In this document: one piece after another, positions 15,331 to 54,496 of the stretch | How the letters are laid out: every line of letters starts with the position of its first letter | Position numbering within the stretch: the stretch's first letter is position 1 | Sequence record: NC_100331.1 | Length of the DNA: 64,000 nucleotides | Direction: 5' to 3' (one strand) | Source: Escherichia phage vB_EcoS_HASG4 | Program-made: the position numbers and the translations under genes | The notes under the pieces: model-generated | The model's input: the letters and a program-made list of their open reading frames with translations, nothing else | Told to the model about the DNA's origin: nothing | Database searches by the model: none

Positions 15331-15600
15331 TTATTTCTTACCTTTCAGTTGCTTAACTTCACGCTCAAAAGATGCTGCACGACGTTCGGCAGTCGCTTGA
15401 TGCTCTTTAGCAAAACGAGCTTCCTGTTTTGCAAGGTTGAACGCCATAGCATTCTTATTCAGAGAATCATACATCTTTTTCATTGCCGGAATAGACATCT
15501 TCATGAGCTGGCCCTCAAAACCCTGCATATCGAGGAGAATTGCCAGAACGTTAGCCATTTCATTTTTAGTCATGTTTTCCATTAGAATTTCCTCTCTCAT
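15331..15600 (-). CDS. hypothetical protein
   Basis: 89 aa; promoter cassette upstream. Confidence 0.5.
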   Translation of the reverse strand: MREEILMENMTKNEMANVLAILLDMQGFEGQLMKMSIPAMKKMYDSLNKNAMAFNLAKQEARFAKEHQATAERRAASFEREVKQLKGKK

Positions 15601-15660
15601 TAATTTATGGACTTATTATACAGAATTTTAAGGCTTAAAGCAACTGAATTTTTTAATTAC

Positions 15661-16092
15661 TTACCAATCGTTAACAACACCAGAGAACTCAGAAGCAAAA
15701 ACTTTCTCAAATTTTTCTGCAATTTCAGGATGATCTTTACAGATTAACTCAATACATGCTTCTGGAGCCATTCCTTCGTCTTCAGGATCACCATAATACT
15801 TGTCCCAAAGATCATCAGGGATGATGTGCTCCGCCAAATCTTGGAAAGAGATTAGCTGATAACGTTCTGCTTCATCGGGGATAAGGATTTCACAAAGATC
15901 TTTATCTATATCACTGCGGTAATCAGCAATTAGCAAGGCATTGCAAGCATGACATTCCCAAACCATCAATCGTTCAGAGATAGGATTAGACTTATCCTGA
16001 ACGTAGGACTGAAACAGGGTTCGGAAAGTAGCTTTAACTTGTTCAAACTTATCTGCTGCTGCAAAAACTAGAGCTTTATCAACTTTGTTCAT
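15661..16092 (-). CDS. hypothetical acidic protein
   Basis: 143 aa; promoter cassette at 16108-16132. Confidence 0.55.
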   Translation of the reverse strand: MNKVDKALVFAAADKFEQVKATFRTLFQSYVQDKSNPISERLMVWECHACNALLIADYRSDIDKDLCEILIPDEAERYQLISFQDLAEHIIPDDLWDKYYGDPEDEGMAPEACIELICKDHPEIAEKFEKVFASEFSGVVNDW

Positions 16093-16107
16093 TTTTACTC
16101 CTTCTCA

Positions 16108-16132
16108 TCAATTTATAAAGTAATTATACAGA
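16108..16132 (-). promoter_or_regulatory. conserved early promoter-leader cassette (example)
   Basis: plus-strand atttataaagtaattatacag; gene orientation TGTATAAT...TTTATAAAT then RBS. Confidence 0.6.
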
Positions 16133-16259
16133 AACTTAGGCATTTTAGCAAATAAAACTTTTAATTAAAATGCCTAATCCTGTACCAATAGTAATACAAA
16201 TGATTATAAGTATTGCTATCGCTTGTATGATTCGTTTAATAATAGCCTCGGCTATATAC

Positions 16260-16853: not shown

Positions 16854-17137
16854 TTACTCCTTTTTTGTATTAAATTATCAACCCAGGTAGTTAATACTCT
16901 AGTTTTAAACTCCTCGGGAGTCTCCCCTTCCTTAAGGTCTACCTCATTAAGATAGGTAGTAAGCCTTGTTTCTATTTCTATTTCAGCAGGAGAATTAAAA
17001 TAAAAATTGACTGCTATTCCAGAATATATTACTCCGGTATCTCCTTTGACGAAAGCATTAACTAATGCCCTCCAACGAAGGGCATCAATACGCATTGCTC
17101 GTAATTCTTCTTGTACTTCTTTCATTCTATCATTCAT
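16850..17137 (-). CDS. hypothetical protein
   Basis: 95 aa. Confidence 0.5.
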   Translation of the reverse strand: MNDRMKEVQEELRAMRIDALRWRALVNAFVKGDTGVIYSGIAVNFYFNSPAEIEIETRLTTYLNEVDLKEGETPEEFKTRVLTTWVDNLIQKRSK

Positions 17138-18012
17138 TAAAGGATCCTCTGTACACCGCAGCTATCATTTTTGTCTGTGGTAAATGTGGTGATTTTGCCA
17201 GTTTCATCGTTAACCTGCGCAACCGTCAACTGCCCGTTGAAAACACCGCCAGTATCTAGGTAAACACGGTTCTGGTATAAAATCGGGTAAGGTACTCCGG
17301 TATGCCCATGAAATACAAAGTCCACTCCATTAACCGGAGGTACTTCTACCATGTATTTTTCTTTAAATCCTGCATAACGCTGGAAATAGGGGTGTTCCTC
17401 ACCATTTTTAGACAAGTGGAAGCCTATTTCTTGGATTACATCTCGATCCCATAAATATGGTTCAACATGGTATCCAGGATGGTCATGTGAGTCTTCCTTA
17501 GCTGCTTCTACGTGTGCAATAAGGTTATCCCATACTGGGGTTTCTACTTCGTTACCACATTCTTTGTACGTGAATGGTACACCACCATGAACAACACCAT
17601 ACTTTTTGCCACGATGCAGCACAGTCAGAAATACTGGAAGTTTTTCAGCCATGTCTTCGGCAATATTTTTAATGGTATCTGCATCTAGTTCATTCATAGC
17701 CCACATACCACCGTTATACATCCAGTTAGCCCAATCTCCTACAATCATAAATTGGTCATGATTACCACGTACACTGATAAAGCGTGGATTGTATAAGAAT
17801 TTGGCTAAAACTTGTAGGTTCTGCGTGCCTCGATCAATTAAATCTCCCACGCATACAACGCAATCTTTCTTACCGTTATAGCCAGCTAATTGTAGTGCAT
17901 CTTCTAGCAAATCGTTGCATCCATGAATATCACCAACAAAGAATAAGTTAACATCATCAGGTACTACTAGTGTTTTATGTACATTAAATTCTTTTTTCAT
18001 AATTATTCCCAA
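17137..18012 (-). CDS. Ser/Thr protein phosphatase (PPP family)
   Basis: 291 aa; GDIHG, GDLIDRG, GNHD, HGG motifs. Confidence 0.8.
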   Translation of the reverse strand: MGIIMKKEFNVHKTLVVPDDVNLFFVGDIHGCNDLLEDALQLAGYNGKKDCVVCVGDLIDRGTQNLQVLAKFLYNPRFISVRGNHDQFMIVGDWANWMYNGGMWAMNELDADTIKNIAEDMAEKLPVFLTVLHRGKKYGVVHGGVPFTYKECGNEVETPVWDNLIAHVEAAKEDSHDHPGYHVEPYLWDRDVIQEIGFHLSKNGEEHPYFQRYAGFKEKYMVEVPPVNGVDFVFHGHTGVPYPILYQNRVYLDTGGVFNGQLTVAQVNDETGKITTFTTDKNDSCGVQRIL

Positions 18013-18248
18013 ATAACATTTAAAATAGTTGTACCATAGTTATTCGATAGTTTGAGAGTATAACCCTCTTTATTGAGGGCTTTTATAGCTTCATAACTAA
18101 TTTCGTCACGATTAAGCTGTACAAAGGAATCTCCAATCTCGACAGAAGATACTATCCTCCGCTTAACCCATCTATACGTTTTCTTTCGGCTCTTAAGGGA
18201 CGCGGCTCTATTTATCCTAGCTAAACGTTTTGCTTGCTCTGCTAACAT
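18003..18248 (-). CDS. hypothetical protein
   Basis: 81 aa. Confidence 0.45.
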   Translation of the reverse strand: MLAEQAKRLARINRAASLKSRKKTYRWVKRRIVSSVEIGDSFVQLNRDEISYEAIKALNKEGYTLKLSNNYGTTILNVIWE

Positions 18249-18345
18249 TTAATCCTCCTATCAATCTATACAAATATTATACCAAAATTTTTAGCAAAAA
18301 GCAAGTAAAATAAAAGCCTGATCCGCTAAGATCAGGCTTGGTTTA

Positions 18346-18663: not shown

Positions 18664-19135
18664 CGTGGAGTTCTTCTAGTTTTTCATCTCTCCATGCAAT
18701 TGCTTCTTCCAAAGAACTGCACGTTTTCATATAATTGATTCCTGCCCTAGAGATTTTTACTCTAAAAGACTTCCCTCTTTGAGATATATTTTTTAATCCC
18801 AATAGGTTATTTTTATTAGCCGATTTCCTATTAAAAGCATTTTGAGCTTTTGTAGCTTCTCTTAAGTTACCAATACGATTGTTTAGCGTATTGGTATCAT
18901 CATGATCTACTATATCAGGTAAATAGCCTTTGTGCATAAAGAAGATTGCTCTATGCGCAAGTATTCGTTCTCCATCAATAGAGAGCATTAGATAGCCATC
19001 AGCATTAATAGACCCAGCAGGCATATTGTTAAGGCTAGTATTCCAACCTCTTGTACCTTCCGGTCTAGGTTTCCAGGTTAGAGTACCATCTTCGTGGTAC
19101 TCTAGTACCTCTAATAATCTCTCCCTAGTAATCAC
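18629..19135 (-). CDS. HNH homing endonuclease with AP2-like domain
   Basis: 168 aa; HNH-type histidine/asparagine motif and AP2-like C-terminus. Confidence 0.7.
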   Translation of the reverse strand: MITRERLLEVLEYHEDGTLTWKPRPEGTRGWNTSLNNMPAGSINADGYLMLSIDGERILAHRAIFFMHKGYLPDIVDHDDTNTLNNRIGNLREATKAQNAFNRKSANKNNLLGLKNISQRGKSFRVKISRAGINYMKTCSSLEEAIAWRDEKLEELHGEFASKGNKNV

Positions 19136-19560
19136 AATTTATTAATGGCCTCTAAGAAGTTTTTCATAGTTTTTACGGTTGCGGTGCTCAGATCAAGATT
19201 TACACCCAAGCACTCGGTTAATGCTTCCTGATAAGGAGCCTTTAATCTGCCTTCCGGGACTTCTACCTTCTTATATTCTTTATTTTTGACCTTTTTAATC
19301 ATAGTCTCTAGTACAAGAAGTGGTAATTTAGCACCTTCAATATCAGTACCCAAAAGTTCAGTTAAAATTTTATTAAGATCAAGACGAGTTAACTTTTTGC
19401 CTTTAGACATAGGAGCACCTACCTTTGTATCAATAGATTTTTCCGCTTTCTTTTCGAGCTTTTTGTACTCAGGAGAGTCATGATCGCGGAGTGCAATGTT
19501 TAGCTCGTAATGTGGTATACGAAAATGTTCCGCCATTTGAGTGTAGAAACGATCAGACAT
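19132..19560 (-). CDS. hypothetical protein
   Basis: 142 aa. Confidence 0.5.
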   Translation of the reverse strand: MSDRFYTQMAEHFRIPHYELNIALRDHDSPEYKKLEKKAEKSIDTKVGAPMSKGKKLTRLDLNKILTELLGTDIEGAKLPLLVLETMIKKVKNKEYKKVEVPEGRLKAPYQEALTECLGVNLDLSTATVKTMKNFLEAINKL

Positions 19561-19635
19561 AATATATACCTCTCTTAACTAATTTATGTATATATTATAT
19601 AATAACTAGGGCTAAAAGTCAACTACTTTTTTATC

Positions 19636-20052: not shown

Positions 20053-20129
20053 GGCTTTCTCCTATCTTCAAAAATTATTAAAGCCCCCTTTGCCTAAAAA
20101 GGCGGGAATATTCCCGCCTCAGTTATTAA

Positions 20130-21196: not shown

Positions 21197-21352
21197 TTTG
21201 TAACCTCCTCTAACCAGTACCATTATACTAATTTTGGAGGAAAATTTCAATGGGTTTTTAAATGTTACACTTGGAGCACAAAATTATGTCGTTGTCAAGA
21301 AGAATTTTAGATAAAAGAAAAGCCAGGGTACTTAACCCTGGCTTAAAATTAC

Positions 21353-21952: not shown

Positions 21953-21964
21953 AGCGATCCTTGA

Positions 21965-23070: not shown

Positions 23071-23444
23071 GCTAATCTTTCCTCGAACTCCTTACTCTGC
23101 TTTTTAGCAATTAATGTAACCAATCCAGGCTTTGCAGCTATAATATCTTGACGACTAAGAGCTTTATCAAGCTGGGAGATCTTCTTATCAAGATCTTGTT
23201 GGGAAATATTATGGAAAGTGAAATATTGATTCATACGTGTTTCACGTTGTTCACTTTCAACTTTAATCTTGTTTAAGGAAGTTTCTAGAGTAGAGATCTT
23301 TTTAGTAGCTACTGCAAGATCACCTGATAGAGTCTCAACCTTATTAACTAAGTGATAAGCACCGAATCCGATGCCTATCGCTAGACCTGCTCCCAGGATA
23401 TACCATTTACCTTGCCATAGAGAACTAATAAAGTTTTTTATCAT
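23001..23444 (-). CDS. i-spanin-like membrane protein
   Basis: 147 aa; N-terminal TM then coiled-coil; overlaps lipoprotein gene by 70 nt out of frame. Confidence 0.55.
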   Translation of the reverse strand: MIKNFISSLWQGKWYILGAGLAIGIGFGAYHLVNKVETLSGDLAVATKKISTLETSLNKIKVESEQRETRMNQYFTFHNISQQDLDKKISQLDKALSRQDIIAAKPGLVTLIAKKQSKEFEERLACLTGNLEYCSQPQSQSQAVHKK

Positions 23445-24121
23445 CTTTTCATATTCCTGAATGACGTAACCGTATCAAATCCATGTGCTGCTAGGCGGTC
23501 TTTATCTGATACAGTAATCATATCAGGCTCACCAGTTCCTAATACACCGAAGATATACTGTTCGAGAACTTGGTGCAAACGGTATAAGTTACTTTCAATT
23601 TCCTGCCACGGAATACCTGATAGGTGTAGACGCGGATTAGTTATAACCTTGAAGTATTTATTGTTATCTTTATCATTTGGAACTAATGAATCTAGAACTA
23701 CTAATGGTACTCTTAGCTCAGATAAGGCTTCTTTAGCTTTCGGGGTAACTTCTTCTTGCCACGATAAGATAGACTCTTTTGGCTTCCCTCTATTTATGTC
23801 TAGCAAAGAAAACCCTGTTGACCACCCATTCTCCTCTAAAATTTCTAACGCCTCGTCCAGGCTGAAGGTTTTTACTTGGGTATCTAGCACGTCAATGTGG
23901 TATAACCAGTAAATCTCTCCGGCTAGGAAGAAAGGCAAAATTTTAAAGTAGCCAATCTTTCCCTCAATACGAGCAATCCTACGTTCTTGCATGATCATAT
24001 AGTTGCCATCATCTGGGGCTTTTATTGTTAGCTCTTCAGTTTTACGTTCCCAAACACGATCTGCATCGAATAAACTGTTCTGCAAATCATACACATCTGC
24101 AAATTTAGAAATGATTCTCAT
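23441..24121 (-). CDS. hypothetical protein
   Basis: 226 aa; promoter cassette upstream. Confidence 0.55.
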   Translation of the reverse strand: MRIISKFADVYDLQNSLFDADRVWERKTEELTIKAPDDGNYMIMQERRIARIEGKIGYFKILPFFLAGEIYWLYHIDVLDTQVKTFSLDEALEILEENGWSTGFSLLDINRGKPKESILSWQEEVTPKAKEALSELRVPLVVLDSLVPNDKDNNKYFKVITNPRLHLSGIPWQEIESNLYRLHQVLEQYIFGVLGTGEPDMITVSDKDRLAAHGFDTVTSFRNMKR

Positions 24122-24275
24122 ATTTAATCCTCTTGCCTCAATCTATGAATATATTATACAAAAGTTTGGGCATCTATGCAACTAAAATTTTATTACAAAA
24201 ATAGCCCAGTCGCAAAAGTGCAGGCTGGGCTTTGTCATTATTTGCTTTTGCTAGTAAGTTGACTTAGTGTCAATC

Positions 24276-25681: not shown

Positions 25682-25973
25682 CTTCACCTTCAAAGTCGCA
25701 ATCATAACGACAAGTAAAAGAACTAGAGCTATTAGTACGTTGAGTAGTTATCTCACCACGTTTGCTAACAGTAACAGCCGGAGTAGAGAAGTTTTTATTA
25801 GTATATATTTCTACTCTGCCGTTACGTTCCTTAACATCACGAACTTTACCATACTCAGTAATAATGCCGTTCTGTTGGACTTTAACATTACCATTTTTCA
25901 TAAAAACTTTGGTAGATGCTAGAGAACCGAAACTAACTGCCGAAACCATCAGTGCAATAATAAACTTATTCAT
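25674..25973 (-). CDS. secreted protein
   Basis: ORF 25674-26084 trimmed to ATG starting a signal peptide (MNKFIIALMVSAVSFGSLA). Confidence 0.5.
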   Translation of the reverse strand: MNKFIIALMVSAVSFGSLASTKVFMKNGNVKVQQNGIITEYGKVRDVKERNGRVEIYTNKNFSTPAVTVSKRGEITTQRTNSSSSFTCRYDCDFEGEDE

Positions 25974-26247
25974 CAGTATCTTCCTCATTACAGTCACGGC
26001 ATACATCATAATCATTAAAGGAATGTTCGTGAGCTTCACACCACCAAGAACAAGAATCGCAGAGGAATATTTCGGTTTTCTCAAGTGCTTGGCCTAAAAG
26101 ATCATCAGCTTCATCAGCAGTAATCTTCAATCCACATACATCTGCCACACGTTCTTTAATTAAGCGACCTGCCTCATGGTAAGACATACAGGTTCCCGCA
26201 ACATCATGTTCAAGAACATGAATGGCACAGTCTAGGCGATTTTTCAT
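25966..26247 (-). CDS. Cys-rich zinc-ribbon-like protein
   Basis: 93 aa; CDSCSWWC and CRDC pairs. Confidence 0.5.
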   Translation of the reverse strand: MKNRLDCAIHVLEHDVAGTCMSYHEAGRLIKERVADVCGLKITADEADDLLGQALEKTEIFLCDSCSWWCEAHEHSFNDYDVCRDCNEEDTDE

Positions 26248-26263
26248 TTCAAACCTCTCTCAT

Positions 26264-26286
26264 CAATTTATAAATATATTATAGCA
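26264..26286 (-). promoter_or_regulatory. conserved early promoter-leader cassette (example)
   Basis: plus-strand caatttataaatatattatagc. Confidence 0.6.
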
Positions 26287-26323
26287 AGAAAAGAGAGGTT
26301 TAGCAAATGAATTATTTCAGAAA

Positions 26324-28287: not shown

Positions 28288-28581
28288 TTATAGCAACTCA
28301 TCTAAGCAAGAGGTATATTTAAGTTTACCATCTTTATCTACTTTGATTTCGACTTCCGCTCGTGGTACTTGACGAACTACACCATGAATCATCTTATAGC
28401 GAATGCCTTTAGCTGGTTCATGCTCTTTTGGAAATACTTGCTTAACCGTTACTACCTTGAAACCCTCACGCGGTGTTAACACTACTACTTGATCACCTTC
28501 TTTGATCTTCCAAGAGCTGGGAAATTCATAGGTATAGCGTTGACCACCAGTTTGGAACACAACAGAAAGATAACGTTTCAT
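28288..28581 (-). CDS. hypothetical protein
   Basis: 97 aa; promoter cassette upstream. Confidence 0.5.
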   Translation of the reverse strand: MKRYLSVVFQTGGQRYTYEFPSSWKIKEGDQVVVLTPREGFKVVTVKQVFPKEHEPAKGIRYKMIHGVVRQVPRAEVEIKVDKDGKLKYTSCLDELL

Positions 28582-28648
28582 TTGGTTTCCCTCTCATTAA
28601 TTTATATAAATATTATAACAAGAAATAAGAGAGAAAGCAAATGAATTT

Positions 28649-28816
28649 TTAATAAAGTTTAGTCACTTCATAAACTATACTACGAGATTCTTTATTACGT
28701 TCTATTAAATTAGCGTATGCTTTTTCAGCTTCATTTTTAGTATTAAAGTCTATAACGTGGGAGGTATTAGCTCTGTTTGATTGACTATACCAGATAACTA
28801 CTAGGAGTTTAAACAT
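28649..28816 (-). CDS. hypothetical protein
   Basis: ORF 28649-28843 trimmed to internal ATG (RBS AAGGA) to avoid tRNA overlap. Confidence 0.4.
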   Translation of the reverse strand: MFKLLVVIWYSQSNRANTSHVIDFNTKNEAEKAYANLIERNKESRSIVYEVTKLY

Positions 28817-31525: not shown

Positions 31526-31748
31526 AAATTCTTTAGTTTACTAAGGCTATTAGCTCGGCGTAACTACAGCACCTTCGCTTCGGGCGGAAGGAACTGCGTC
31601 ATCTCGCAAACCCAATACACTATTCAGTTGCCGCTGAATCTAGTGGACCAATCTAGAACTTCTCCCGAATCATGGGGATCGTGCTTTTTGGCAGCCAGTC
31701 CTAGGTCGAGCTAATACCTTAGTGAACTATGATGAGGATCTCTCCTCA
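31526..31748 (-). ncRNA. candidate non-coding RNA region downstream of a promoter cassette
   Basis: 223 nt without ORF; cassette at ~31749-31780 points into it; hairpin ccttcgcttcgggcggaagg. Confidence 0.3.
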
Positions 31749-31784
31749 TCAATTTATATAAATATTATAACAAGAAATTAAGCA

Positions 31785-32153
31785 TTAAGCAAGTACATTT
31801 TTAGCGATTTCTTGTAGTTCCTTTACATCACGAACGTAAAGGTAATCAGAGCTTCCAGAGTGCATACTTTGCATAACCACACCTTCATCTGGTGCATTAT
31901 CCTTCAAAGTAATTCCTAACCAGAACTCGGCAAAACTAGGTGTTACCTCACCTTGACTTGCCTTGAATACATCATATTCTGTAAGTTCTTGACCAGTAGA
32001 TAATCCCAAATAGACAGAACTAAGATCAATCTCTTTATGAGACTCATAAAATTCCGATAGATCTTTTTCCATATCCCAGCCATGCTGTAACGCGAACTCC
32101 ATTGTCACATGACCGAAATAACCTTGAATCTTGCTTGATAATTGCATTTGCAA
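31785..32153 (-). CDS. hypothetical protein
   Basis: 122 aa; RBS AAGGAA. Confidence 0.5.
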   Translation of the reverse strand: MQMQLSSKIQGYFGHVTMEFALQHGWDMEKDLSEFYESHKEIDLSSVYLGLSTGQELTEYDVFKASQGEVTPSFAEFWLGITLKDNAPDEGVVMQSMHSGSSDYLYVRDVKELQEIAKNVLA

Positions 32154-32684: not shown

Positions 32685-32843
32685 TTATTTCTTCAACCAC
32701 AACAAAGATAAGCCCAGCATACTAAAGCCGCTAACTAATCCGATACATTTTTCTTCTGTAGTAAAAGTATCTAGATTAAATGCTGTTATAGCTATTGGCA
32801 TACACCATAATGCCATAAAAACTTGAGCTATCTTGTGTTTCAT
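32685..32843 (-). CDS. small membrane peptide
   Basis: 52 aa ORF below track cutoff; promoter cassette and RBS directly upstream. Confidence 0.35.
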   Translation of the reverse strand: MKHKIAQVFMALWCMPIAITAFNLDTFTTEEKCIGLVSGFSMLGLSLLWLKK

Positions 32844-33054
32844 TTTGCTTTCCTTCTCTTCACTTTATAAAATATATTATACAGAGAATTAAGCATAATA
32901 GCAAATGAATTTTTAATAAATTTACTTATTGTGTAGGCCACCTGGAGGCTACCAACCCCACGGCTGACAAAGAAGTTTGCGAGACCCCTCTTAAATGCCA
33001 GAATAGACCCGCCGATCTATCGGAACCTACATAATAAGTAAACTTTATAGTGTC

Positions 33055-34538: not shown

Positions 34539-34614
34539 TGGACGACCGCATGAGATTTGAACTCACATAAAAAGGATTTGCAATCCTTCGCCTAAGCCAT
34601 TCAGCCAACGGTCG
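34539..34614 (-). tRNA. tRNA-Cys (GCA)
   Basis: anticodon arm AAGGA-TTGCAAA-TCCTT; discriminator U; T-arm GTGAGTTCAAATCTCAT. Confidence 0.8.
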
Positions 34615-34686
34615 ATTTATCTTGTTCTGTCATGTTGCTTCTCCAGTTCAATTTATGTAATTATTATTATACAGAACTTTTGGAAA

Positions 34687-34974
34687 CTAAGCAACTACAT
34701 TTTTTAAGAATTTGATGCCTTTCTTTTTCTTCTTATATTTCCACGTTAAGGGATTCTGTCGATTATGAACGCTTGAGATCTTCGTCTCGTCAAAGTTCTT
34801 CAATATCATGTAATCACAAGATAATTGTTCTAATGGAATGTGATCACCGTCAAAAGCATATACATAAGGCTGTTGACTAGCACGATAATGATAGACTTTG
34901 TTAATTCTACGTTTCAGCGACTTATCAGCGCAGTAAATAAAGAAGTTTTCAGGATGCATCAGCAGCTCCTTCAA
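34687..34974 (-). CDS. hypothetical protein
   Basis: 95 aa. Confidence 0.5.
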   Translation of the reverse strand: MKELLMHPENFFIYCADKSLKRRINKVYHYRASQQPYVYAFDGDHIPLEQLSCDYMILKNFDETKISSVHNRQNPLTWKYKKKKKGIKFLKNVVA

Positions 34975-35308: not shown

Positions 35309-35436
35309 ATATTTAGAAGCATTCAAATACTTGTTTAAACACTTTTAAATATGTTTCCAAATTAGATAACTATTATACCAAGTTTTAAGGCACTGAGCAA
35401 GTCAAATTTTGAAGAACTTGCTCAGTGCTGTATTAG

Positions 35437-35712
35437 TTAGTCGAACTTAGGAGTGACAGCTAAGGAGAACGGAAGTTCAAAAACTTCTTCCCCCTCATTA
35501 CTAACGGTAACTACACGACCTTTAAGTTCAGACATTAAAATATCAATATCAGCTTTTGCATCTGGAGCCATGCCAGCTTCAATACATTTAGCTTTAACTT
35601 CTGGTAAAAGCTCTACGTTATAGAGATAGAGCCACTCAATCTCACCTTCCCAGTCTTCCCAGGATTTGCAGATTGCACTTTCAATACCAGTTGCTACAAC
35701 ACGATTTTGCAT
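35437..35712 (-). CDS. hypothetical acidic protein
   Basis: 91 aa; promoter cassette upstream. Confidence 0.5.
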   Translation of the reverse strand: MQNRVVATGIESAICKSWEDWEGEIEWLYLYNVELLPEVKAKCIEAGMAPDAKADIDILMSELKGRVVTVSNEGEEVFELPFSLAVTPKFD

Positions 35713-35802
35713 TAATTAACTCCTTCATCAATTTATACAACTATTATATCAGAAATTTAAAGCAAAAGGCAAGTACATTTTTAAAAATTCTATTCGGAGG
35801 AG

Positions 35803-36905: not shown

Positions 36906-36983
36906 TGGTGGCTCCCCGAGGATTCGAACCTACGTACCTTCCGGTTATGAGCCGGGTGCTCATACCATATGAGCTTGAGAACC
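36906..36983 (-). tRNA. tRNA with CAT anticodon (third copy)
   Basis: acceptor GGTTCTC/GGGAGCC; anticodon arm CCGG-CTCATAA-CCGG. Confidence 0.7.
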
Positions 36984-36989
36984 AAAATC

Positions 36990-37079
36990 TGGCGGAAGAA
37001 GTGGGAATCGAACCCACAAGGCTATATTTCAAACCGACAGATTAGCAATCTGCTGCAATACCGTTATGCTATTCTTCCG
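36990..37079 (-). tRNA. tRNA-Ser (GCT)
   Basis: 90 nt type II; starts GGAAGAA; anticodon arm GCAGA-TTGCTAA-TCTGT; promoter cassette abuts 5' end. Confidence 0.8.
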
Positions 37080-37099
37080 AATTTATAAGATATATTATA

Positions 37100-37618
37100 T
37101 TAGAAATTTAGCTTCATAGCAAGAAAATTTTTCAAGTTTTCGGTAGACATCTCATCCACATCTACGGGAGAAACAAATCCATTTAATTGTCTAGCAAACT
37201 TTTCACCAGCAGGATCATTGTCCCCAACAGCTACCAATTTAAAAGGTAGTAATTTCAGTTGCTTTAATAACGCTTTTCCTGGAGAAGAACCCAACATTGC
37301 CAGGGCTGGATAACCAGCATTATGTAACGCAACTGCCTTAAATACAGATTCAGCAATCAATACTACTTTTTCATCTCCATTGAGAGTTTCTAGTCCCCAT
37401 ACACACTGGGTAGTAGAATAAGTAAAATATTTAGCTTCAAAGGGGCACTTACCATGACCTTTTGGAGCAGAAGGATTATAAGTTTGATAGCCCCTCAACA
37501 TCCCAGAGAAGTCATACAACGGGACTGTTAGCCATCCTTCCGGACTTAACCAGCAATGATATTTATCTGTATCAAATCCTCTAGATAAGAGGTGCTGTGT
37601 TAGCTCATCAACATTCAT
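37100..37618 (-). CDS. TOPRIM-like domain protein
   Basis: ORF 37100-37669 trimmed (track start read through promoter cassette); IAESVF...GDNDPAGEKFA resembles TOPRIM. Confidence 0.5.
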   Translation of the reverse strand: MNVDELTQHLLSRGFDTDKYHCWLSPEGWLTVPLYDFSGMLRGYQTYNPSAPKGHGKCPFEAKYFTYSTTQCVWGLETLNGDEKVVLIAESVFKAVALHNAGYPALAMLGSSPGKALLKQLKLLPFKLVAVGDNDPAGEKFARQLNGFVSPVDVDEMSTENLKNFLAMKLNF

Positions 37619-37633
37619 ATTTGGTTCCTCTCT

Positions 37634-37658
37634 CAAATTTATAGATATATTATACAGA
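37634..37658 (-). promoter_or_regulatory. conserved early promoter-leader cassette (example)
   Basis: plus-strand caaatttatagatatattatacaga. Confidence 0.6.
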
Positions 37659-37793
37659 GAATTTAGCATTCAAGCAATCAAATTTTTTAACTTTTTAGAG
37701 GAAAATCATAGGGCACTTAAGGGTAGCAGATAAGTGGTGAGGACCAAAATTTGTGACCCAACTAAAAATCCGGGGGCAATTTTTAAAGACCCC

Positions 37794-47044: not shown

Positions 47045-47521
47045 TCACATCTCAGCAAGTTCTTGCTCAGTAATAACTGTATTACATAGTGCATCTACAG
47101 CTTCATTACCACTAATACCAGAATGTCCTTTAACCTTAATAAAGGTAGGATTAGTATTATGAAAGTTGATATACTGCTGTGTTAATTTAAATGCTTCCTG
47201 CCAAAGTTCTAGATTAAGAGGAACTTCACCATCTGCTTTCTTCCAGCCTTTCCTTTGCCAAGAAAACATCCAACTTTCCATACCGTTTTTGCAATAAGCA
47301 GAATCAGTATAGATAACAATTGGTCTATTATCTTTTTTAACTGACCAACGTAGAGCCTCTACAATAGCCGTGAGTTCCATCTCATTATTTGTAGTTTTAG
47401 GACTATAACCAGATTTAGAACCTAAACGATCATCGTTATCATCATAGACAATAAATCCCCAAGCACCTGGACCTGGGTTAGACTTACAAGCACCATCTGT
47501 GTAAATGTGGAAAACCGACAT
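47045..47521 (-). CDS. rnhA: ribonuclease H (RNase HI type)
   Basis: 158 aa; YTDGAC and TNNEMEL motifs. Confidence 0.85.
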   Translation of the reverse strand: MSVFHIYTDGACKSNPGPGAWGFIVYDDNDDRLGSKSGYSPKTTNNEMELTAIVEALRWSVKKDNRPIVIYTDSAYCKNGMESWMFSWQRKGWKKADGEVPLNLELWQEAFKLTQQYINFHNTNPTFIKVKGHSGISGNEAVDALCNTVITEQELAEM

Positions 47522-47790
47522 TATTTGCTCCAGTCAATTTCAAGCCAAAAACCTTCACGCTGCTCATACTTAGCTTCTACGACATAGCCTAGTTTAGTGA
47601 GTCGTTGCATAACGCTGTTTCTGGCGCTTTCTGAATATTCAGTTAACCCCTGAATATGGCAGTTAAATTCTTTTTCTTTGATTGCTTTATCAATCTCTAC
47701 GGCAATAAGTGACTCTAGATTAAGTACTTCCTGTTTAATAACAGCAATAGTATTTTGTTTTGCTTCTAAAGCAGATAAAAGAATAGACAT
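47521..47790 (-). CDS. hypothetical protein
   Basis: 89 aa. Confidence 0.5.
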   Translation of the reverse strand: MSILLSALEAKQNTIAVIKQEVLNLESLIAVEIDKAIKEKEFNCHIQGLTEYSESARNSVMQRLTKLGYVVEAKYEQREGFWLEIDWSK

Positions 47791-48044
47791 TAGTTTTCGC
47801 CTTCTATAATTACCCTAGTCGCTGGAGGAATTGGCGGCATAGGAGGAATACATGGATGACCTCTCTGTGCATCATTTGGTACTCTTGGCGGTTCAGGTCT
47901 AGTTGCCTTTAATTCCTTTTCTAGGAATTGTTCTAACGCCCGTTCTACAAAATGATCGAAAGGTAAGTGATAATACTGAGACAGAGCTAAGAACCTACGT
48001 TCTTGACTTTGTGTTAAATAAACTTTCTTTTTAAAGAGTCCCAT
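47790..48044 (-). CDS. hypothetical protein
   Basis: ORF 47790-48086 trimmed (track start read through promoter cassette); RBS GGAG. Confidence 0.5.
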   Translation of the reverse strand: MGLFKKKVYLTQSQERRFLALSQYYHLPFDHFVERALEQFLEKELKATRPEPPRVPNDAQRGHPCIPPMPPIPPATRVIIEGEN

Positions 48045-48136
48045 AGTTGTCTCCGATTTATAAAATATATTATATCTAAATTTCACTCAGTAAGCAAATG
48101 AAATTTAAATATAATAGCCCCGAAGGGCTATTTGAG

Positions 48137-50651: not shown

Positions 50652-50757
50652 TGATTTTCCTCTTTCTCACTATTTCAGGAATATTATAGCAAATCTGATA
50701 GCGATTAGCAAGTAAAATTTCAAAGAAAAAGGAGACCCGAAGATCTCCTTGTTTTTA

Positions 50758-53088
50758 TTAAATAGTACAACCGCCTGATGCACAACCGGCTGCTTCTTCT
50801 CCAGCACCTCCACCATTTGCAGTGTTGAAGTTAGCATAATACCAAGTTTTCCACCCGTATTTAACAGCAGTCATGAAATCACGAACTACTACTGGGCCAG
50901 GAATAATTTCATTCTCAAACTTGGTGTAGTCATAGTACATATTCGTACTGATAGACTGACTGAAGAATTTCTGCATAGTTGCTACCCATTTGATCCACTC
51001 GATACGATCTACATCATAAGCCAGTTTATAGCTCATTAACGTTTCCCAATCGGTTGCACCTGGAGCAATTGCAATTACTTTATTCACTGCACTACCCTTG
51101 ATAGATACAATCTTACGAGGTGGTTCAATAGAGTTAGTAACGCCTAACAGAACAGAGGAACTTTCTCCCGGCATCTGCGCAGTCAGAACAGAGTTACGCA
51201 TACCGTATTTAAGAATATCTGCACGCAGAGATTCCCAATCCATTTCTAGACCTACGGATACCAGCTCATCAACAGTTTTCTTATACGTGTCGATTACCAG
51301 AACTCCTTTGGAGGGTTTAGTACGATTAAACCATTCACATGCACCTTGTTCTTTAGCCAGACGTACAGAGGCTTTATGTAGGAAGTAAGACAGTTTTTCA
51401 GCCTCACGATGAATCCAGTTACGTGCTTCAACGCCTTCGTAGGCCAAACCTTCCGCCGCCATTGCACCTGCTGCGTTCATCAGACCAATACCAACATTAC
51501 GACGTTTCTTAGCCGTATATTCCATAGTTGGGAACGGATAATCCTGAATTTCAATGATGGTATCAACGAATTTCAGAAGAATATAGCAAGTCTTTTCCCA
51601 CTCAGCCAGAGATTCCATGCGTCCTAGTACAACACCACCTAAGTTACACAGAGATACTTCCCCAATATCCTCCGGCTTCATTTGATCAAGTTGTTCTTTT
51701 GTTTTATACAGTTCCGTGATATGATGGAACGGGCGTGTAGGCTGAGTAATTTCAACACAAAGGTTTGTCATACGGATCGGATCAAGGAAGTTACCGTGAC
51801 GATTAGATTCCCCGATGTGGTGAGCATACATACGTCCTGTTTCCATTCGGATACGTAGCCAAGTATCTAGGATTTCTTTTGCAGAGACTTTAGGAGCTGC
51901 TGGAACTGTTTTTCCTTCGTGGTCGATCTTTGTAAGAGATGCCACACGTTTCTCCGCTGCCACATAGATTTCTTCAAATTTAGCCTCGTCATCACTATAA
52001 AACGCTTCATGAACTTCTGGAGCATAGAAGTATGACATTAGCGTAATATCTTCATTTTTCAGATAACGTTTTAACAAAAGATTGTTGAAGCTCAGAGAAT
52101 AATCCATCTTATCGATTTTATTCTCGTCTGTAGCACGTTGTTGCTTAACCTGCATCAACTGGATGATTTCAGGGTCAAAGTATGGATAAGACACTGTAGC
52201 AGAACCACCACGAGTTTGCTGAGTATTGGCCTTTACTGAGCGGTCAATGTGTCGATAATATGGCAGTTTTCCGGAATGCGGGAATGCCCCATTTCGCACC
52301 GGATCAGCAATTGATCGGCTTTCAAGATGATACCCGATTCCCGCTCTGGCTGCAACCATTTTGAAGACGATGTGTTCGGCCGTGTCGATTGAATCCAATG
52401 TGTCAGTGGAATCAACGAGGCAACAACTAGCAAATCCACGATCACTAGAGCGTAAGCCAACCAATGGCGGCGTGGGAACGTTGATTTTGTGTAGCGACAT
52501 TGCGTTGTAGAGGTCGATTGCATCTAGAATTGTCCAATTAGGTTGAGATAACATTGCCATTGCCATACCCATATAGGCGAATTGCGGAGTTTCGTAAATT
52601 TCTCCAGTTGCTATATTACGGCGAGAATACTTATCAAAGAATTGTTTCAGTCCTCCACTAGTGAAAAGACGGTCACGATCATGGTCAATAACCTGATTCA
52701 AAGCCTCAAACTGCTCATCGGTAATCCATGCACTCATGTCTTCCCATGCACCTACACTAACCATATGATCATGGAAGAAGCGTAGAGAAGGTGGTTCAAA
52801 GGAATCATAAAGGCGTTTACGCATCTGCGCAAGACGTAATTCCTTTGCTGGCACGTCGTATGCTGGATTATCTTTGATAAGACTTTCAGCAGCTTTAATT
52901 AAAGCATCCATCAGAGTGTCGGAATCTACAACCCCTTTAGGCAGAGTTTTTTGAGCAGCCATAGTAATGGCTGACCAACTTACATCAACTGTTTTGCAAC
53001 CATACTCTGCCCAACCATTGAGTTTTTCAGGAGCAAAGTCTTCTACAGTACCGTCACGTTTAATTACTTTTTCAATGCGATGGCTCAT
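50758..53088 (-). CDS. nrdA: ribonucleotide reductase class Ia large subunit
   Basis: start set at ATG for MSHRIEKVIKRDG (ATP-cone, RBS AAGGA); track ORF extends to 53193. Confidence 0.9.
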   Translation of the reverse strand: MSHRIEKVIKRDGTVEDFAPEKLNGWAEYGCKTVDVSWSAITMAAQKTLPKGVVDSDTLMDALIKAAESLIKDNPAYDVPAKELRLAQMRKRLYDSFEPPSLRFFHDHMVSVGAWEDMSAWITDEQFEALNQVIDHDRDRLFTSGGLKQFFDKYSRRNIATGEIYETPQFAYMGMAMAMLSQPNWTILDAIDLYNAMSLHKINVPTPPLVGLRSSDRGFASCCLVDSTDTLDSIDTAEHIVFKMVAARAGIGYHLESRSIADPVRNGAFPHSGKLPYYRHIDRSVKANTQQTRGGSATVSYPYFDPEIIQLMQVKQQRATDENKIDKMDYSLSFNNLLLKRYLKNEDITLMSYFYAPEVHEAFYSDDEAKFEEIYVAAEKRVASLTKIDHEGKTVPAAPKVSAKEILDTWLRIRMETGRMYAHHIGESNRHGNFLDPIRMTNLCVEITQPTRPFHHITELYKTKEQLDQMKPEDIGEVSLCNLGGVVLGRMESLAEWEKTCYILLKFVDTIIEIQDYPFPTMEYTAKKRRNVGIGLMNAAGAMAAEGLAYEGVEARNWIHREAEKLSYFLHKASVRLAKEQGACEWFNRTKPSKGVLVIDTYKKTVDELVSVGLEMDWESLRADILKYGMRNSVLTAQMPGESSSVLLGVTNSIEPPRKIVSIKGSAVNKVIAIAPGATDWETLMSYKLAYDVDRIEWIKWVATMQKFFSQSISTNMYYDYTKFENEIIPGPVVVRDFMTAVKYGWKTWYYANFNTANGGGAGEEAAGCASGGCTI

Positions 53089-53232
53089 TTGGTTTTCCTT
53101 TTTATAATTATCAGGATTTAGGAAATAGTTTACTTTATTCTCAGTCATTTGGCAAATAAAATTTTCTGATAGAAAAGGCCCGAGTATTTTCATACCCAGG
53201 CCTTCTGTGTTGTCAGTCTAGTTTTTGGCCAC

Positions 53233-53430
53233 TTAAGTTCTCAGCAGAATATCTATTGAGGTACTTAGTTCATTATAATTGAAGGGCCGATTTGGATTTG
53301 AGGTTACAATTTTCCACGCTAGGGTAGTCTTAGGACTTTCTTCCCCTTCCTTACGTGTAATCATATTAGCAGCACTCAATGAGGTACGGTGAATTTTAGT
53401 TTTACGGTGTAGATGTACGACGTTTCCCAT
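53233..53430 (-). CDS. small hypothetical protein
   Basis: ORF 53233-53499 trimmed to ATG abutting PhoH stop. Confidence 0.35.
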   Translation of the reverse strand: MGNVVHLHRKTKIHRTSLSAANMITRKEGEESPKTTLAWKIVTSNPNRPFNYNELSTSIDILLRT

Positions 53431-53431
53431 A

Positions 53432-54193
53432 TTACACCTTCCCCATGTCTTTAAAAATATCGTAGAATGCTTTAGACTCAGCAGAACGAACGTTATCAAT
53501 CAATTCGATCATTGAGAATGGAGCATTTTCATATTTCTCATAAACTTCCATAAGAAGTGCTAGACCTGAGTCACCTTTAATGTCTTTCTGAGCTATATCT
53601 CCGCAGATAATTAAACGGCAGTCTTGTCCTACACGAGTTAGGAGACAAACCATTGCCTCAACGGAAATATTCTGAGCTTCATCGACAATTACATAGGAGT
53701 TGTTGAAAGTTCTGCCACGAGCATGTTCTATAGCCAAAAATTTAATTTTCTGACGTTCGACATATCCCTTATAGGCATGATCACCGATGGCCCATTTCAT
53801 ACCATCAGCTATTGGCTCCAACCAAGGCTCTAGCTTTTCTGCTAGATCACCAGGAAGCATACCAAGAGACTTACCTAGAGGTTCATTAGGACGTACGAGA
53901 ATCACTTGCTCAATATCTGAGTGAATGTCTACGAGTTCCTGAGCTGCAAGAACGGACGGGATAAAGGTTTTACCGGTACCTGGCTCACCAATGCCCACAG
54001 TCACTGTGTTGTTCTTGATCATATTGATATATGATTTTTGCTCTCGGTTTTTACCTACTAGGGATTTAGCAACTGGGTTAGCGTAATCATTAGAAAAATC
54101 AGCCTGAATTACGTTATTCTCATATTTGTTGCCACGCTTTCTTGAACCATTGCGGTTCTCTCTTTTTTGACGTGCTTTTCCCATAAATAACAC
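53432..54193 (-). CDS. phoH: PhoH-like ATPase
   Basis: 253 aa; Walker A GEPGTGKTF. Confidence 0.85.
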   Translation of the reverse strand: MLFMGKARQKRENRNGSRKRGNKYENNVIQADFSNDYANPVAKSLVGKNREQKSYINMIKNNTVTVGIGEPGTGKTFIPSVLAAQELVDIHSDIEQVILVRPNEPLGKSLGMLPGDLAEKLEPWLEPIADGMKWAIGDHAYKGYVERQKIKFLAIEHARGRTFNNSYVIVDEAQNISVEAMVCLLTRVGQDCRLIICGDIAQKDIKGDSGLALLMEVYEKYENAPFSMIELIDNVRSAESKAFYDIFKDMGKV

Positions 54194-54496
54194 TCCTATA
54201 GTGTACTTCGCTAACAGAGGATCAACAAAAAGATCTTGTTTATCAACTTACAAATATATTATACCAGTATATGCAGTAAAAAGCAACTACAATTTTAAAT
54301 AAGCCTATGATATTGCATTTAAATAAAAAATTTGCTTGCTTTTAACTGGAAATGTATGGTATTAGATAATCATTTTATACCGCGTACATAGGCGCGTGAT
54401 TATACTATTTTAAGTACAAAATAGCAAATAAATTTTTTAACAATTTGCTAACTTTTTAGCACAGATCAAAATACAATATCTAAGAGAAAAATTATA

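Follow-up and report, generated by a model that had tools for sequence, protein, structure and literature searches.

The DNA analysed here, a stretch of 64,000 nucleotides of Escherichia phage vB_EcoS_HASG4 (NC_100331.1; hereafter the window), belongs to a T5-like coliphage and is 100% identical to vB_EcoS_EASG3 over positions 40000-48000. The cassettes repeated along it are an already known element, the strong early promoter of T5-like phages, and hence ordinary for this phage family; that the copies are early-class promoters of the host sigma-70 type was considered very likely. An initial annotation had described a recurrent unit of promoter, leader and ribosome-binding site, and both this anatomy and the reading as a promoter proved correct; 20 of 20 coordinates listed there fell on genuine copies of one cassette.

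Architecture of the cassettes

The cassette is composed, in this order, of an A-tract, TTGCTa, 17 bp, TATAAT, the AT-rich discriminator ATATTY, ATAAATTGA from the predicted +1, GAGAGG and, some 24 nt further on from this +1, a start codon. The hexamers (-35 TTGCTa/TTGACA and -10 TATAAT) were found 17 (16-18) bp apart, with TTGNNN-17-TATAAT at 29 sites and one further site with an 18-bp spacer. AAAAA occupied -45 to -41 in 24-27 of the 29 sites, in the selection of which the A-tract at about -43 played no part (0.85-1.2 bits per position), and an A/T-rich block around -43 likewise occurred in five other phages. In per-position information the A-tract, TTGC, TATAAT and the AT-rich start region stood out. 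The discriminator displayed A at -6 in 88% of sites and was T-rich from -5 to -1, and the start of ATAAATT lay 6-7 nt from TATAAT (9 nt in a single case), its +3 A and +7 T being the most constant positions. The TG of TGTATAAT lies at -14/-13, displaced by a single base from the canonical TGn extended -10, and the spacers loosely share the pattern AATGCTTAAATTCTG, dispensable for sigma-70 binding. From the predicted +1 to the start codon the leader measured 17-27 nt (median 24) in the 20 window copies with a Shine-Dalgarno (SD) sequence and start codon.

Distribution in the genome

A weight matrix spanning -48 to -7 was applied to the window and the rest of the genome with a threshold of 8 bits, and yielded 37 matches above it, compared with 0-1 in ten Markov-random genomes. 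This position-weight scan assigned 31 of the copies to the window. Of these, 27 belong to the minus strand (12.7-54.4 kb) and four, from 54.5 kb onwards, to the plus strand; all of them point the same way as their genes, with which they switch strand at 54.4/54.5 kb. In the whole genome 34 of the 37 matches lie in the early region (12.7-75.6 kb), and the pre-early region (1-10 kb) contained no weight-matrix match. The range of 15600-54262 first reported does hold cassettes, but their span in the window is 12729 to 63438 and reaches 75.6 kb in the genome, with one additional copy at 109.3 kb.

Exact TGTATAAT occurred 16 times versus 4.8 +/- 2.1 in shuffles. ATAAATT (at most one mismatch) was present at 25 of the 37 promoters versus 7 of 146 other TATAAT sites (Fisher 9e-16), and since 21 of these 25 promoters are situated in the window, the count of more than 20 copies given initially holds. 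The other 12 promoters lack the core and possess equally good upstream halves; promoter function hence does not depend on it. Two simpler probes were discarded: a generic sigma-70 consensus scan was uninformative (43 matches vs 54.9 in shuffles), and the 14-mer TATTTATAAATTGA with three mismatches was unusable (44 matches vs 27.7 by chance), which places the signal in the combined architecture and not in the AT-rich 14-mer alone. An Rfam search over the window returned tRNA matches only, with no family match at the leader.

To place the unit before almost every early gene was an overstatement: about 31 promoters serve about 97 protein genes and 23 tRNA genes (roughly one promoter per four genes in the window), so that cassettes precede operons, not nearly each gene. 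Copies directed at tRNA genes or non-coding DNA are real, as had been claimed, and some mechanical ORFs indeed extend through a cassette (e.g., 37100-37669, with the annotated start at 37618). Many cassettes directly follow an intrinsic terminator, the T-run of which doubles as upstream A/T element; the early region is hence a chain of short terminator-promoter units. The sites of the window are as follows, with weight-matrix scores in bits and T5 labels.

12699..12764, minus strand: TTGACG-17-TATAAT without ATAAATT core, ahead of a CDS starting at about 12691; 22.3 bits.
15590..15655, minus strand: TTGCTT-17-TATAAT-AAGTCC-ATAAATTAA-TGAGAGAGG, ahead of CDS 15331-15582; 47.3 bits.
16098..16163, minus strand (-10 at 16128): ATAAATTGA and GAGAAGGAG, ahead of CDS 15661-16092; 40.3 bits; T5P9.
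18251..18316, minus strand (-10 at 18281): ATAGATTGA, ahead of CDS 18003-18248; 37.2 bits; T5P10. The T-run of the upstream terminator (annotated in EASG3) overlaps the A/T-rich upstream element of this promoter.
19569..19634, minus strand (-10 at 19599): TTGACT as -35, ATAAATTAG, ahead of CDS 19132-19560; 24.9 bits; T5P11.
21197..21262, minus strand: TTGAAA-17-TATAAT without ATAAATT core, ahead of the holin/endolysin operon; 22.4 bits; T5P12.
24128..24193, minus strand (-10 at 24158): ATAGATTGA, ahead of CDS 23441-24121; 40.0 bits; T5P13.
26253..26318, minus strand (-10 at 26283): exact TATTTATAAATTGATGAGAGAGG, ahead of CDS 25966-26247; 29.5 bits; T5P14, 'repeat b copy 1'.
28587..28652, minus strand (-10 at 28617): ATAAATTAA-TGAGAGGG, ahead of CDS 28288-28581; 37.5 bits; T5P16.
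31739..31804, minus strand (-10 at 31769): full ATAAATTGATGAGGAGAG, no ORF; 40.3 bits; T5 'repeat b copy 3'. The SD-like bases are paired in a 9-bp hairpin, and the predicted transcript runs about 230 nt to tRNA-Ala/tRNA-Leu.
32851..32916, minus strand: 7-nt discriminator, ATAAAGTGA, ahead of CDS 32685-32843; 45.1 bits; T5P17.
34641..34706, minus strand (-10 at 34671): ATAAATTGA preceded by a 9-nt gap, with a 10-codon ORF and tRNA-Cys (34539-34614) next downstream; 42.1 bits; T5P18.
35347..35412, minus strand: degenerate core CTAATTT, ahead of tRNA-Tyr/Glu/Phe; 42.2 bits; T5P19.
35718..35784, minus strand (-10 at 35748): TTGCCT-18-TATAAT (18-bp spacer), ATAAATTGA, ahead of CDS 35437-35712; T5P20.
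37069..37134, minus strand (-10 at 37099): ATAAATT core kept, no SD, tRNA-Ser (36990-37078) starting about 8 nt past the predicted +1; 33.4 bits.
37624..37689, minus strand (-10 at 37654): ATAAATTTGAGAGAGG, ahead of the CDS with annotated start 37618; 38.3 bits; T5 'repeat c copy 2'.
41469..41534, minus strand (-10 at 41499): ATAAATTAG core, no SD or ORF, predicted transcript heading for a tRNA-like gene (41198-41271); 46.1 bits; orthologue in Klebsiella phage L005:5431.
42142..42207, minus strand (-10 at 42172): ATAAATTAA-TGAGAGG, ahead of CDS 41965-42135; 44.2 bits; T5P22.
42982..43047, minus strand (-10 at 43012): TTAAATTGA, ahead of CDS 42659-42976; 41.6 bits; T5P23.
44308..44373, minus strand (-10 at 44338): ATAAATTTGAG, leader of about 34 nt, ahead of CDS 44110-44292; 39.7 bits; T5 'repeat c copy 4'.
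46176..46241, minus strand (-10 at 46206): 7-nt discriminator, ATAAATTGA, leader of about 31 nt, ahead of CDS 45647-46162; 42.7 bits; T5P25.
46971..47036, minus strand: degenerate core ATTGAAAGT, GAGGAGGG as SD, ahead of CDS 46684-46968; 38.8 bits.
48044..48109, minus strand (-10 at 48074): ATAAATCGGAG, 17-nt leader, terminator hairpin immediately upstream, ahead of CDS 47790-48044; 32.8 bits.
50658..50723, minus strand: canonical TGn extended -10 without ATAAATT core, coming after a terminator, ahead of the nrdB-frd-thy operon; 35.6 bits; T5P28.
53102..53167, minus strand: weak candidate promoter TTGCCA-17-TAAACT within the annotated 5' end of nrdA; 13.9 bits.
54233..54298, minus strand (-10 at 54263): GTAAGTTGA core, leader of about 67 nt, ahead of a phoH-like gene; 36.9 bits; T5P30.
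54374..54439, minus strand: tandem upstream promoter with full upstream half and GC-rich start region CACGCGCC, no ATAAATT; 34.2 bits.
54485..54550, plus strand: divergent promoter, perfect TTGACA-17-TATAAT without ATAAATT core, ahead of nrdD; 18.9 bits.
56460..56525, plus strand (-10 at 56495): ATAAATTTGAGAGGAG, overlapping the T-run of the nrdD terminator, ahead of CDS 56529-56906; 33.6 bits; T5P31, 'repeat c copy 5'.
59860..59925, plus strand: ATTGAATTGAGAG, followed by about 490 nt without ORF and then the origin-binding-protein gene (60400); 40.3 bits; T5P32.
63403..63477, plus strand (-10 at 63438): counterpart of T5 PN25, ahead of a CDS starting at 63475; aligned with T5P33.

In T5, T5P29 stands upstream of an nrdA that is shorter than the nrdA annotated here, the true start of which is probably the ATG near 53088. 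The leaders after 41499 and 54263 folded no better than shuffles. In the untranslated stretch of about 490 nt after promoter 59895 neither a credible Rfam match (best E = 0.12) nor an excess of folding energy (z = 0.0) was detected; a strong hairpin (z = -3.2) occupies its first 73 nt.

Conservation in T5 and other relatives

Both T5 GenBank records annotate the sites as early promoters, and in AY587007 the -10/start segment also carries the labels 'repeat b' and 'repeat c'. Between 10 and 45 kb of T5, the annotation marks 12 of 19 motif sites as promoters and another four as 'repeat b/c'; in the EASG3 record terminators are annotated, but promoters are not. Pairing with a T5 site at >=75% identity over 100 nt was possible for 29 of the 37 sites. 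In these 29 pairs, formed by best match and possibly including a few paralogues, substitutions per site were fewest at +1 to +9 (0.008) and rose through the spacer (0.039), the discriminator (0.046) and +10 to +20 (0.075) to the flanks (0.15). Among the unconditioned segments, +1 to +9 is hence the one that has changed least between the window and T5.

The promoter consensus was recovered independently in Klebsiella, Pectobacterium and two Vibrio relatives, in which the origin-binding protein is just 38-78% identical, and the first 7-9 bases are common to about two thirds of early promoters, also in these relatives. Homology of early promoters around -43 and around +7 was reportedly noted by Gentz and Bujard in J Bacteriol 164:70 of 1985. 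In the literature searched, the sharing of the first 7-9 bases across early promoters and relatives was not found stated, nor was a T5 transcriptome or start-site map found; start sites of some T5 promoters are known from primer extension (PMC7472727).

Initial transcribed sequence and its proposed role in promoter escape

According to the mechanism proposed here, it is the host sigma-70 RNA polymerase, in unmodified form, that would read the early promoters. In its anatomy each cassette is a full strong promoter, consisting of -35 TTGCTa, a 17-bp spacer, a consensus -10 and an AT-rich discriminator of 6-7 nt, with the A-tract at about -45 to -41 in the position of the proximal UP-element subsite. 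Transcription is predicted to start at the A of ATAAATT, as TATAATAGATTCAT represents -12 to +2 of N25 (PMC7472727), which puts +1 on this A; the conserved 'leader' would hence correspond to the initial transcribed sequence, from +1 to about +9. Probably it acts at the level of DNA and transcription: with a start site of the type pyrimidine-A-T and a first turn rich in A/T and poor in G/C, the polymerase would be able to quit the very tightly bound promoter fast, instead of cycling abortively. GAGAGG is an ordinary SD sequence for the first gene of the operon, and is missing where the predicted transcript is a tRNA precursor. NAD-capping was also considered and dropped: the promoters carry T-Y at -2/-1 and T at +2, unlike the capping consensus with purines at -2/-1 and G/C at +2.

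The site at 63438 equals PN25 from TTCTGTATAAT through ATAAATTTGAGAGAGGAGTT, with the sole difference in the spacer (PN25 sequence from T5P33 of AY587007 and the published PN25 primer, PMC4447248). When +3 to +20 of N25 were replaced, productive RNA dropped about ten-fold and escape became slower (PMC12464699 citing Kammerer et al., 1986; PMC5961368). We infer that the start site and the escape effect of PN25 would apply to the other copies as well. Good escape was found to follow no simple sequence rule (PMC5961368), and it is therefore not evident why this sequence, and not any A/T-rich one, was kept from E. coli to Vibrio phages.

Alternative explanations

A possible but on the whole doubtful alternative is that the discriminator and start region (ATATTY-ATAAATT) are kept mainly as a class mark, by which a phage factor, either gpT5.026 acting via RNA polymerase or a DNA-binding repressor, would lower all early promoters together at the early-to-late switch. 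The T5.026 product binds host RNA polymerase and was proposed to act via the early-promoter discriminator (Klimuk et al., 2020, PMC7472727), and a homologue is present here:

13714..14172, minus strand: T5.026 homologue, 98% identity.

ATATT occurs in all known T5 early promoters, from which late promoters differ mainly in the discriminator; gpT5.026 reduced polymerase binding to a -12/+2 N25 oligonucleotide eight-fold, and its loss raised early and lowered late transcripts (PMC7472727). Moreover, the motif is limited to the early class and conserved far more deeply than the escape function obviously demands. However, the in vitro effects of gpT5.026 were small (two-fold or less), the mutant was viable, and mapping placed the effect at -5/+2 instead of +3 to +9 (PMC7472727). 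Of the regulatory binding site suggested in the initial annotation, the discriminator ATATT stands as the proposed target of gpT5.026; a separate DNA-binding operator is not indicated. In favour of a mark, ATTTATAAAT, spanning -4 to +6, reads as a 10-bp palindrome, though only where -1 is T; C at -1 in many copies breaks the symmetry, which argues against a symmetric dimer operator. Conservation also differs between its two halves, with about 0.5 bit per position on the left (discriminator) and 0.6-0.9 on the right (+1 to +7), and AT-only palindromes, common by chance, are weak evidence. The idea of dyad symmetry was judged weak. The first seven transcribed bases are conserved across Demerecviridae, from E. 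coli to Vibrio phages; that they were kept as a second sigma-70 contact or class mark appears unlikely. If true, this second contact or mark would let the phage pause on, retain sigma on, or jointly shut off all early units.

Quite improbable, too, is a pause element, in which TAAATT at +2 to +7 would be a second -10-like hexamer, re-bound by sigma-70 region 2 on the non-template strand while transcription begins, with a sigma-dependent promoter-proximal pause at about +16 to +18 (in the SD region) or sigma retention on early elongation complexes, as in lambda pR'. T5 is not known to have a Q-like antiterminator. The hexamer starting at +2 carried A in its second and T in its sixth position, the two bases captured by sigma, in 70% of 94 promoters from five phages; in Vibrio phage D437 the A at +3 (82%) and the T at +7 (88%) are retained despite drift at +2 and +6. 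For sigma-dependent pauses between +10 and +15, the prerequisites are a -10 of consensus type, a discriminator of 6 bp and a start of the form Y-R(+1)-Y, all three of which T5 early promoters possess, and a downstream -10-like hexamer leads to pauses at +16 to +20 (PMC7876045); in lambda pR' the element at +1 to +6 pauses at +16/+17 (PMC4005639). However, TAAATT lies 14 bp, not 11 bp, past the true -10, so that its second base falls at +3, outside the -1 to +2 range of PMC7876045, and the A at +4 and +5 are equally conserved yet mismatch TATAAT. Despite decades of in vitro work our literature search retrieved no report of a sigma-dependent pause on native N25, and a pause would oppose the fast escape measured for N25 (PMC12464699).

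There is likewise little probability that the copies are alike through duplication or recombination of a mobile regulatory cassette, in the style of the T4-type promoter-stem-loop, and not through selection on each copy. The spacer pattern shared without need for sigma-70 binding and the repeat families listed in the T5 record would fit such a spread, as would the approximately 6 of 38 window-T5 alignment breakpoints within 10 nt of a cassette (about 2 expected), a small excess from a single genome pair that is confounded because cassettes and indels both prefer intergenic DNA. Against it, the same positions are conserved in relatives as far as Vibrio phages, while spacers and flanks differ; +1 to +9 evolves about five times slower than the spacer in orthologous pairs; and PN25 and its counterpart diverge in the spacer only.

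A/U-rich stretches ahead of SD sequences can enhance translation, and AUAAAUUGA is found 2-8 nt upstream of the SD in the 20 window cassettes with leaders of just 17-27 nt, but that this mRNA 5' end is a translational enhancer (e.g., an S1-binding site), a possibility raised in the initial annotation, or a 5'-end stability signal is very improbable, given that ATAAATT accompanies 21 of 25 promoter-proximal starts and only 25 of 164 promoter-less, internal ribosome sites (background), that free-standing ATAAATT does not exceed chance (49 non-promoter copies vs about 61 expected in total), that the motif is kept without translation at 37099 (tRNA-Ser at about +9), 31769 and 41499 (no ORF) and in Vibrio phage Cilsick L007:3434, where the promoter runs into a tRNA, and that its position is fixed to the -10 hexamer (6-7 nt) and not to the start codon.

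Significance and comparison with known systems

As a discovery the cassettes carry little weight, T5 early promoters being textbook material and PN25 a standard model of promoter escape. Nevertheless, the scan provides a promoter annotation absent from the EASG3 record and corrects ORF starts running through cassettes, probably including the annotated start of nrdA. The initial transcribed sequence is the most conserved unconditioned promoter part across the whole phage family, which is a useful prior for studies of N25-type escape or of the shut-off of T5 early genes.

The promoter-early stem-loop cassettes of T4-type phages, reportedly described by Arbiol et al. in 2010, are, like the T5 unit, repeated early-promoter units between small early genes in a mosaic region; the T5 unit is without a conserved stem-loop and, as regards recombination junctions, shows only the weak breakpoint excess given above. 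The pause elements of lambda pR' and E. coli G1 (PMC7876045) share the consensus -10, 6-bp discriminator, Y-R-Y start and early -10-like hexamer with the window cassettes, but have a hexamer offset of 11 bp as opposed to 14 bp in the T5 type. In work on how PN25 is transcribed initially (Kammerer et al., 1986, EMBO J 5:2995; PMC12464699), the N25 segment studied is exactly the conserved ATAAATTTGAGAGAGGAG, with the difference that the escape experiments concerned one promoter, and the present count extends to early promoters in general and to the relatives. The T5 early promoters themselves (PN25, P25, P26, P28, P207; T5P6-T5P38 in AY587007) come from the same phage genus and agree with the window sites in genome positions and architecture, without any substantial difference.

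Genome context

Over positions 40000-48000 the window is 100% identical to the record of Escherichia phage vB_EcoS_EASG3 (MK373799.1; Tequintavirus, Demerecviridae), and about 470 records of T5-like phages match the same stretch. Beyond about 8 kb, window positions exceed those of the EASG3 record by 39, an offset produced by short insertions and deletions within the terminal repeat (2-8 kb); in window 2000-8000 exact matching to MK373799.1 fails over several stretches, and the indels sum to 39 bp.

Layout of the window and two tRNA loci
Window 1 to about 10 kb: left terminal repeat with the pre-early genes
Window, minus strand: early region with 23 tRNA genes
Window, plus strand: start of the replication genes
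36909-36983, minus: tRNA detected with Rfam (40.3 bits) and missed by ARAGORN; T5 annotates a tRNA-Met at the matching place
41198-41271, minus: unusual tRNA-Ser, anticodon ACT (ARAGORN), with only 36.8 bits in Rfam; the T5 counterpart is marked as a pseudo-tRNA

Structure and distribution of the cassette

At the 20 coordinates for which the initial annotation had cited a repeated promoter-leader cassette, reading of the respective strand revealed one architecture throughout (20/20): an A-tract, then TTGCTa and TATAAT on either side of a 17-bp spacer that often closes with TCTG, six to seven A/T-rich bases, ATAAATT(G/A/T)A, in most cases (T)GAGAGG, and finally ATG. Sites are named here by the window start of their -10 hexamer. 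Exact TGTATAAT was enriched (16 vs 4.8 in shuffles); the AT-rich 14-mer alone, with three mismatches allowed, was scarcely so, and hence the signal resides in the cassette architecture as a whole. The TG of TGTATAAT lies at -14/-13, off the canonical extended -10 position (-15/-14), which was encountered only at 50688. Many cassettes adjoin intrinsic terminators, the T-run of which constitutes the upstream A/T element (e.g., 18281, 48074, 50688, 56495).

The window holds 29 sites of the form TTGNNN-17-TATAAT. The proposed full-genome motif search was run as a scan of the window and the remainder of the EASG3 genome with a weight matrix spanning -48 to -7 (cut-off >8 bits); it returned 37 matches vs 0 or 1 in ten Markov-random genomes and showed the cassette to be specific to the early class. 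Of the 31 matches inside the window, 27 are minus-strand (12.7-54.4 kb) and four plus-strand (54.5 kb onwards), and the strand of every window promoter corresponds to gene orientation. The six matches beyond the window comprise a group of four at 64-76 kb, a single late-region match and another at 109.3 kb; no match above 8 bits was found in the pre-early region. Cassettes are thus real in the range 15600-54262 to which they had been assigned, but their true extent is 12729 to 63438 and past the window. They do not precede almost every early gene, as had been claimed, since the ratio is roughly one promoter to four genes.

Other control regions and gene starts

Promoter-linked features
53193, minus: start of nrdA (EASG3 annotation and mechanical ORF), lying ahead of a weak promoter prediction at 53132 (TTGCCA-17-TAAACT)
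53088-53193, minus: region with a good AAGGAAAACCAAATG start for nrdA near 53088
54233-54550: divergent control region in which a tandem pair of minus-strand promoters faces one plus-strand promoter
54404, minus: tandem promoter without A/T start region
54263, minus: tandem promoter with A/T start region
54520, plus: nrdD promoter, perfect TTGACA-17-TATAAT
59895, plus: promoter followed by about 490 nt without ORF (59905-60400) before the origin-binding-protein gene, the centre (60050-60300) being GC-richer
About 91811-91850 of the EASG3 record, beyond the window: sole late-region match, TTGATA-17-TATAAT-ATTGTT-ATTAAAGAGGAGAAATTAACTATGAGA

In T5, promoter T5P29 is annotated upstream of a shorter nrdA; the EASG3 start of this gene probably lies about 35 codons too far upstream. 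Directly after promoter 59895, the first 73 nt fold into a strong hairpin (z = -3.2); the centre of 59905-60400 folded no better than shuffles and gave no credible Rfam match. The matching gap is present in T5 (T5P32 to obp), and the region could serve as a leader, either origin-related or regulatory. The late-region ATTAAAGAGGAGAAATTAACTATGAGA matches a ribosome-binding site used in pQE expression vectors ('RBSII'); this vector element thus appears to be derived from a T5-type late gene leader.

Correspondence with known T5 early promoters

Site 63438 aligns with 'putative early promoter T5P33' of T5 (AY587007) and with the published sequence of the classic T5 early promoter PN25 (primer IM103, PMC4447248). 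All three are the same from the -35 region through GAGGAGTT, the window deviating in the spacer alone. AY587007 has 70-nt annotations for the early promoters T5P6 to T5P38 and enters the -10/start segments under 'repeat b' and 'repeat c', and AY543070 (T5) has promoters annotated at matching places. The 19 motif sites located in T5 10-45 kb include 12 annotated promoters and a further four annotated repeats. In the EASG3 record, terminators are annotated and promoters are not. Given the match to T5P33 and PN25 together with the T5 annotations, the cassette is the known T5 early promoter, already annotated in T5, and the initial reading as promoter, leader and ribosome-binding site was correct. 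The 'leader' is the initial transcribed sequence of this promoter, followed by a Shine-Dalgarno sequence. Since N25 from -12 to +2 reads TATAATAGATTCAT (Klimuk et al. 2020, PMC7472727), the predicted +1 falls on the A of ATAAATT.

The leader as transcription or translation signal

Among the 37 promoters, 25 have ATAAATT (at most one mismatch) beginning 6-7 nt past the -10 hexamer, or 9 nt past it in a single case; of the 146 remaining TATAAT sites, 7 do (Fisher 9e-16). Of the 25, 21 fall inside the window, in line with the more than 20 copies originally reported. Exact ATAAATT occurs 72 times in the genome, 23 times behind a TATAAT, and the remaining 49 show no excess over roughly 61 expected in total by chance. 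Twenty window cassettes possess a Shine-Dalgarno sequence and start codon, the leader from +1 to the start codon being 17-27 nt long (median 24). Start codons with a promoter within 60 nt carry ATAAATT in 21/25 cases, promoter-less Shine-Dalgarno-preceded starts in 25/164, which is background level. Copies aimed at tRNA genes or non-coding DNA proved genuine: ATAAATT is kept at the untranslated sites 37099, 31769 and 41499, the latter two without ORF downstream; at 34671 a 10-codon ORF is all that precedes tRNA-Cys, and in Vibrio phage Cilsick one copy leads directly into a tRNA. Its position is set by the -10 hexamer, not by the start codon. These three tests favour a transcription signal over a translation signal.

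Leaders directed at tRNA genes or small ORFs
37099 (37069-37099, minus): tRNA-Ser (36990-37078, minus) starts about 8 nt after the predicted +1
34671, minus: 10-codon ORF MTEQDKSTVG (34601-34633), its last codons overlapping the 5' end of tRNA-Cys (34539-34614)
31769: leader (31730-31757, minus) retaining a Shine-Dalgarno-like GAUGAGGAGAG without start codon after it; a 9-bp hairpin joins this element to UCCUCAUC (68-nt leader, minimum free energy -19.2 kcal/mol), and the transcript continues for about 230 nt without ORF to tRNA-Ala

The distance at 37099 would make the precursor 5' leader (AUAAAUUC), which RNase P has to remove, unusually short. At the place of the mini-ORF T5 has the 42-codon ORF066, so that the phage studied here seems to hold a deletion remnant. 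The T5 counterpart of the hairpin at 31769 is similar and imperfect; this leader may represent either the remnant of a gene start or a small RNA.

Mechanism

On the best-supported interpretation, the cassette is a sigma-70 promoter of very high strength, and the bases transcribed first are adapted to efficient initiation and escape. Exchange of +3 to +20 of PN25 for an 'anti' sequence lowered productive RNA about ten-fold (PMC12464699, citing Kammerer et al. 1986), with more abortive products and a longer escape half-life, and the authors concluded that evolution had shaped the native sequence for rapid escape (PMC12464699); a review makes the same point and states that no simple sequence rule is known (PMC5961368). 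By analogy with PN25, the shared ATAAATT would do this job at the other copies. The core is absent from 12 of the 37 promoters and consequently not essential for promoter activity.

It is conceivable, if rather unlikely, that the discriminator and start region mark a class of promoters for collective regulation. ATATT is present in the discriminator of all early promoters, late promoters differ there, and gpT5.026, which binds host RNA polymerase, weakens polymerase contact with -5/+2 (Klimuk et al., PMC7472727); a homologue, 98% identical, is encoded in window 13714-14172. Such a role may well coexist with that in escape. Little probability was assigned to TAAATT at +2 to +7 being a sigma-dependent pause element: the two key -10 bases occur in it at 70% of 94 sites, and T5 early promoters meet every prerequisite for sigma-dependent proximal pauses listed in PMC7876045, but the offset is 14 bp instead of 11 bp, and a literature search found no such pause described for native N25. 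Equally improbable is a mobile or recombining unit, to which a weak excess of window-vs-T5 alignment breakpoints near cassettes would point, whereas deep positional conservation counts against drift-free copying. A translational enhancer, as suggested initially, is not supported, because ATAAATT tracks promoters, stays at background near promoter-less starts, survives untranslated before tRNAs and keeps its spacing from the -10 hexamer.

Conservation among T5-like phages

Promoters of the window and T5 were compared in 29 pairs (best-match pairing), with the hexamers themselves conditioned on.

Substitutions per site, window vs T5, 29 pairs
+1 to +9: 0.008
Spacer: 0.039
Discriminator: 0.046
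+10 to +20: 0.075
Flanks: about 0.15

More distant relatives were sampled over about 43 kb around the origin-binding-protein gene (protein identity: Klebsiella phage 78%, Pectobacterium phage DU_PP_V 74%, Vibrio phage Cilsick 46%, Vibrio phage D437 38%), and sites were chosen on TTG[ACT]NN-17-TATAAT alone. One consensus, AAAAAtTT-A-TTGCTa-17-TATAAT-AT.T.Y-ATAAATT.A, was recovered independently per phage, the start region of D437 being more degenerate (A.AAAaT.A). Across all five phages, constancy among unconditioned positions is highest at -6 A, +3 to +5 AAA and +7 T; as spacers and flanks vary among them, the likeness of the copies reflects selection rather than recent duplication. Relative to the T5 early promoters already known, the sole and modest addition made here is a count showing that the first 7-9 transcribed bases are their most conserved unconditioned part, family-wide.
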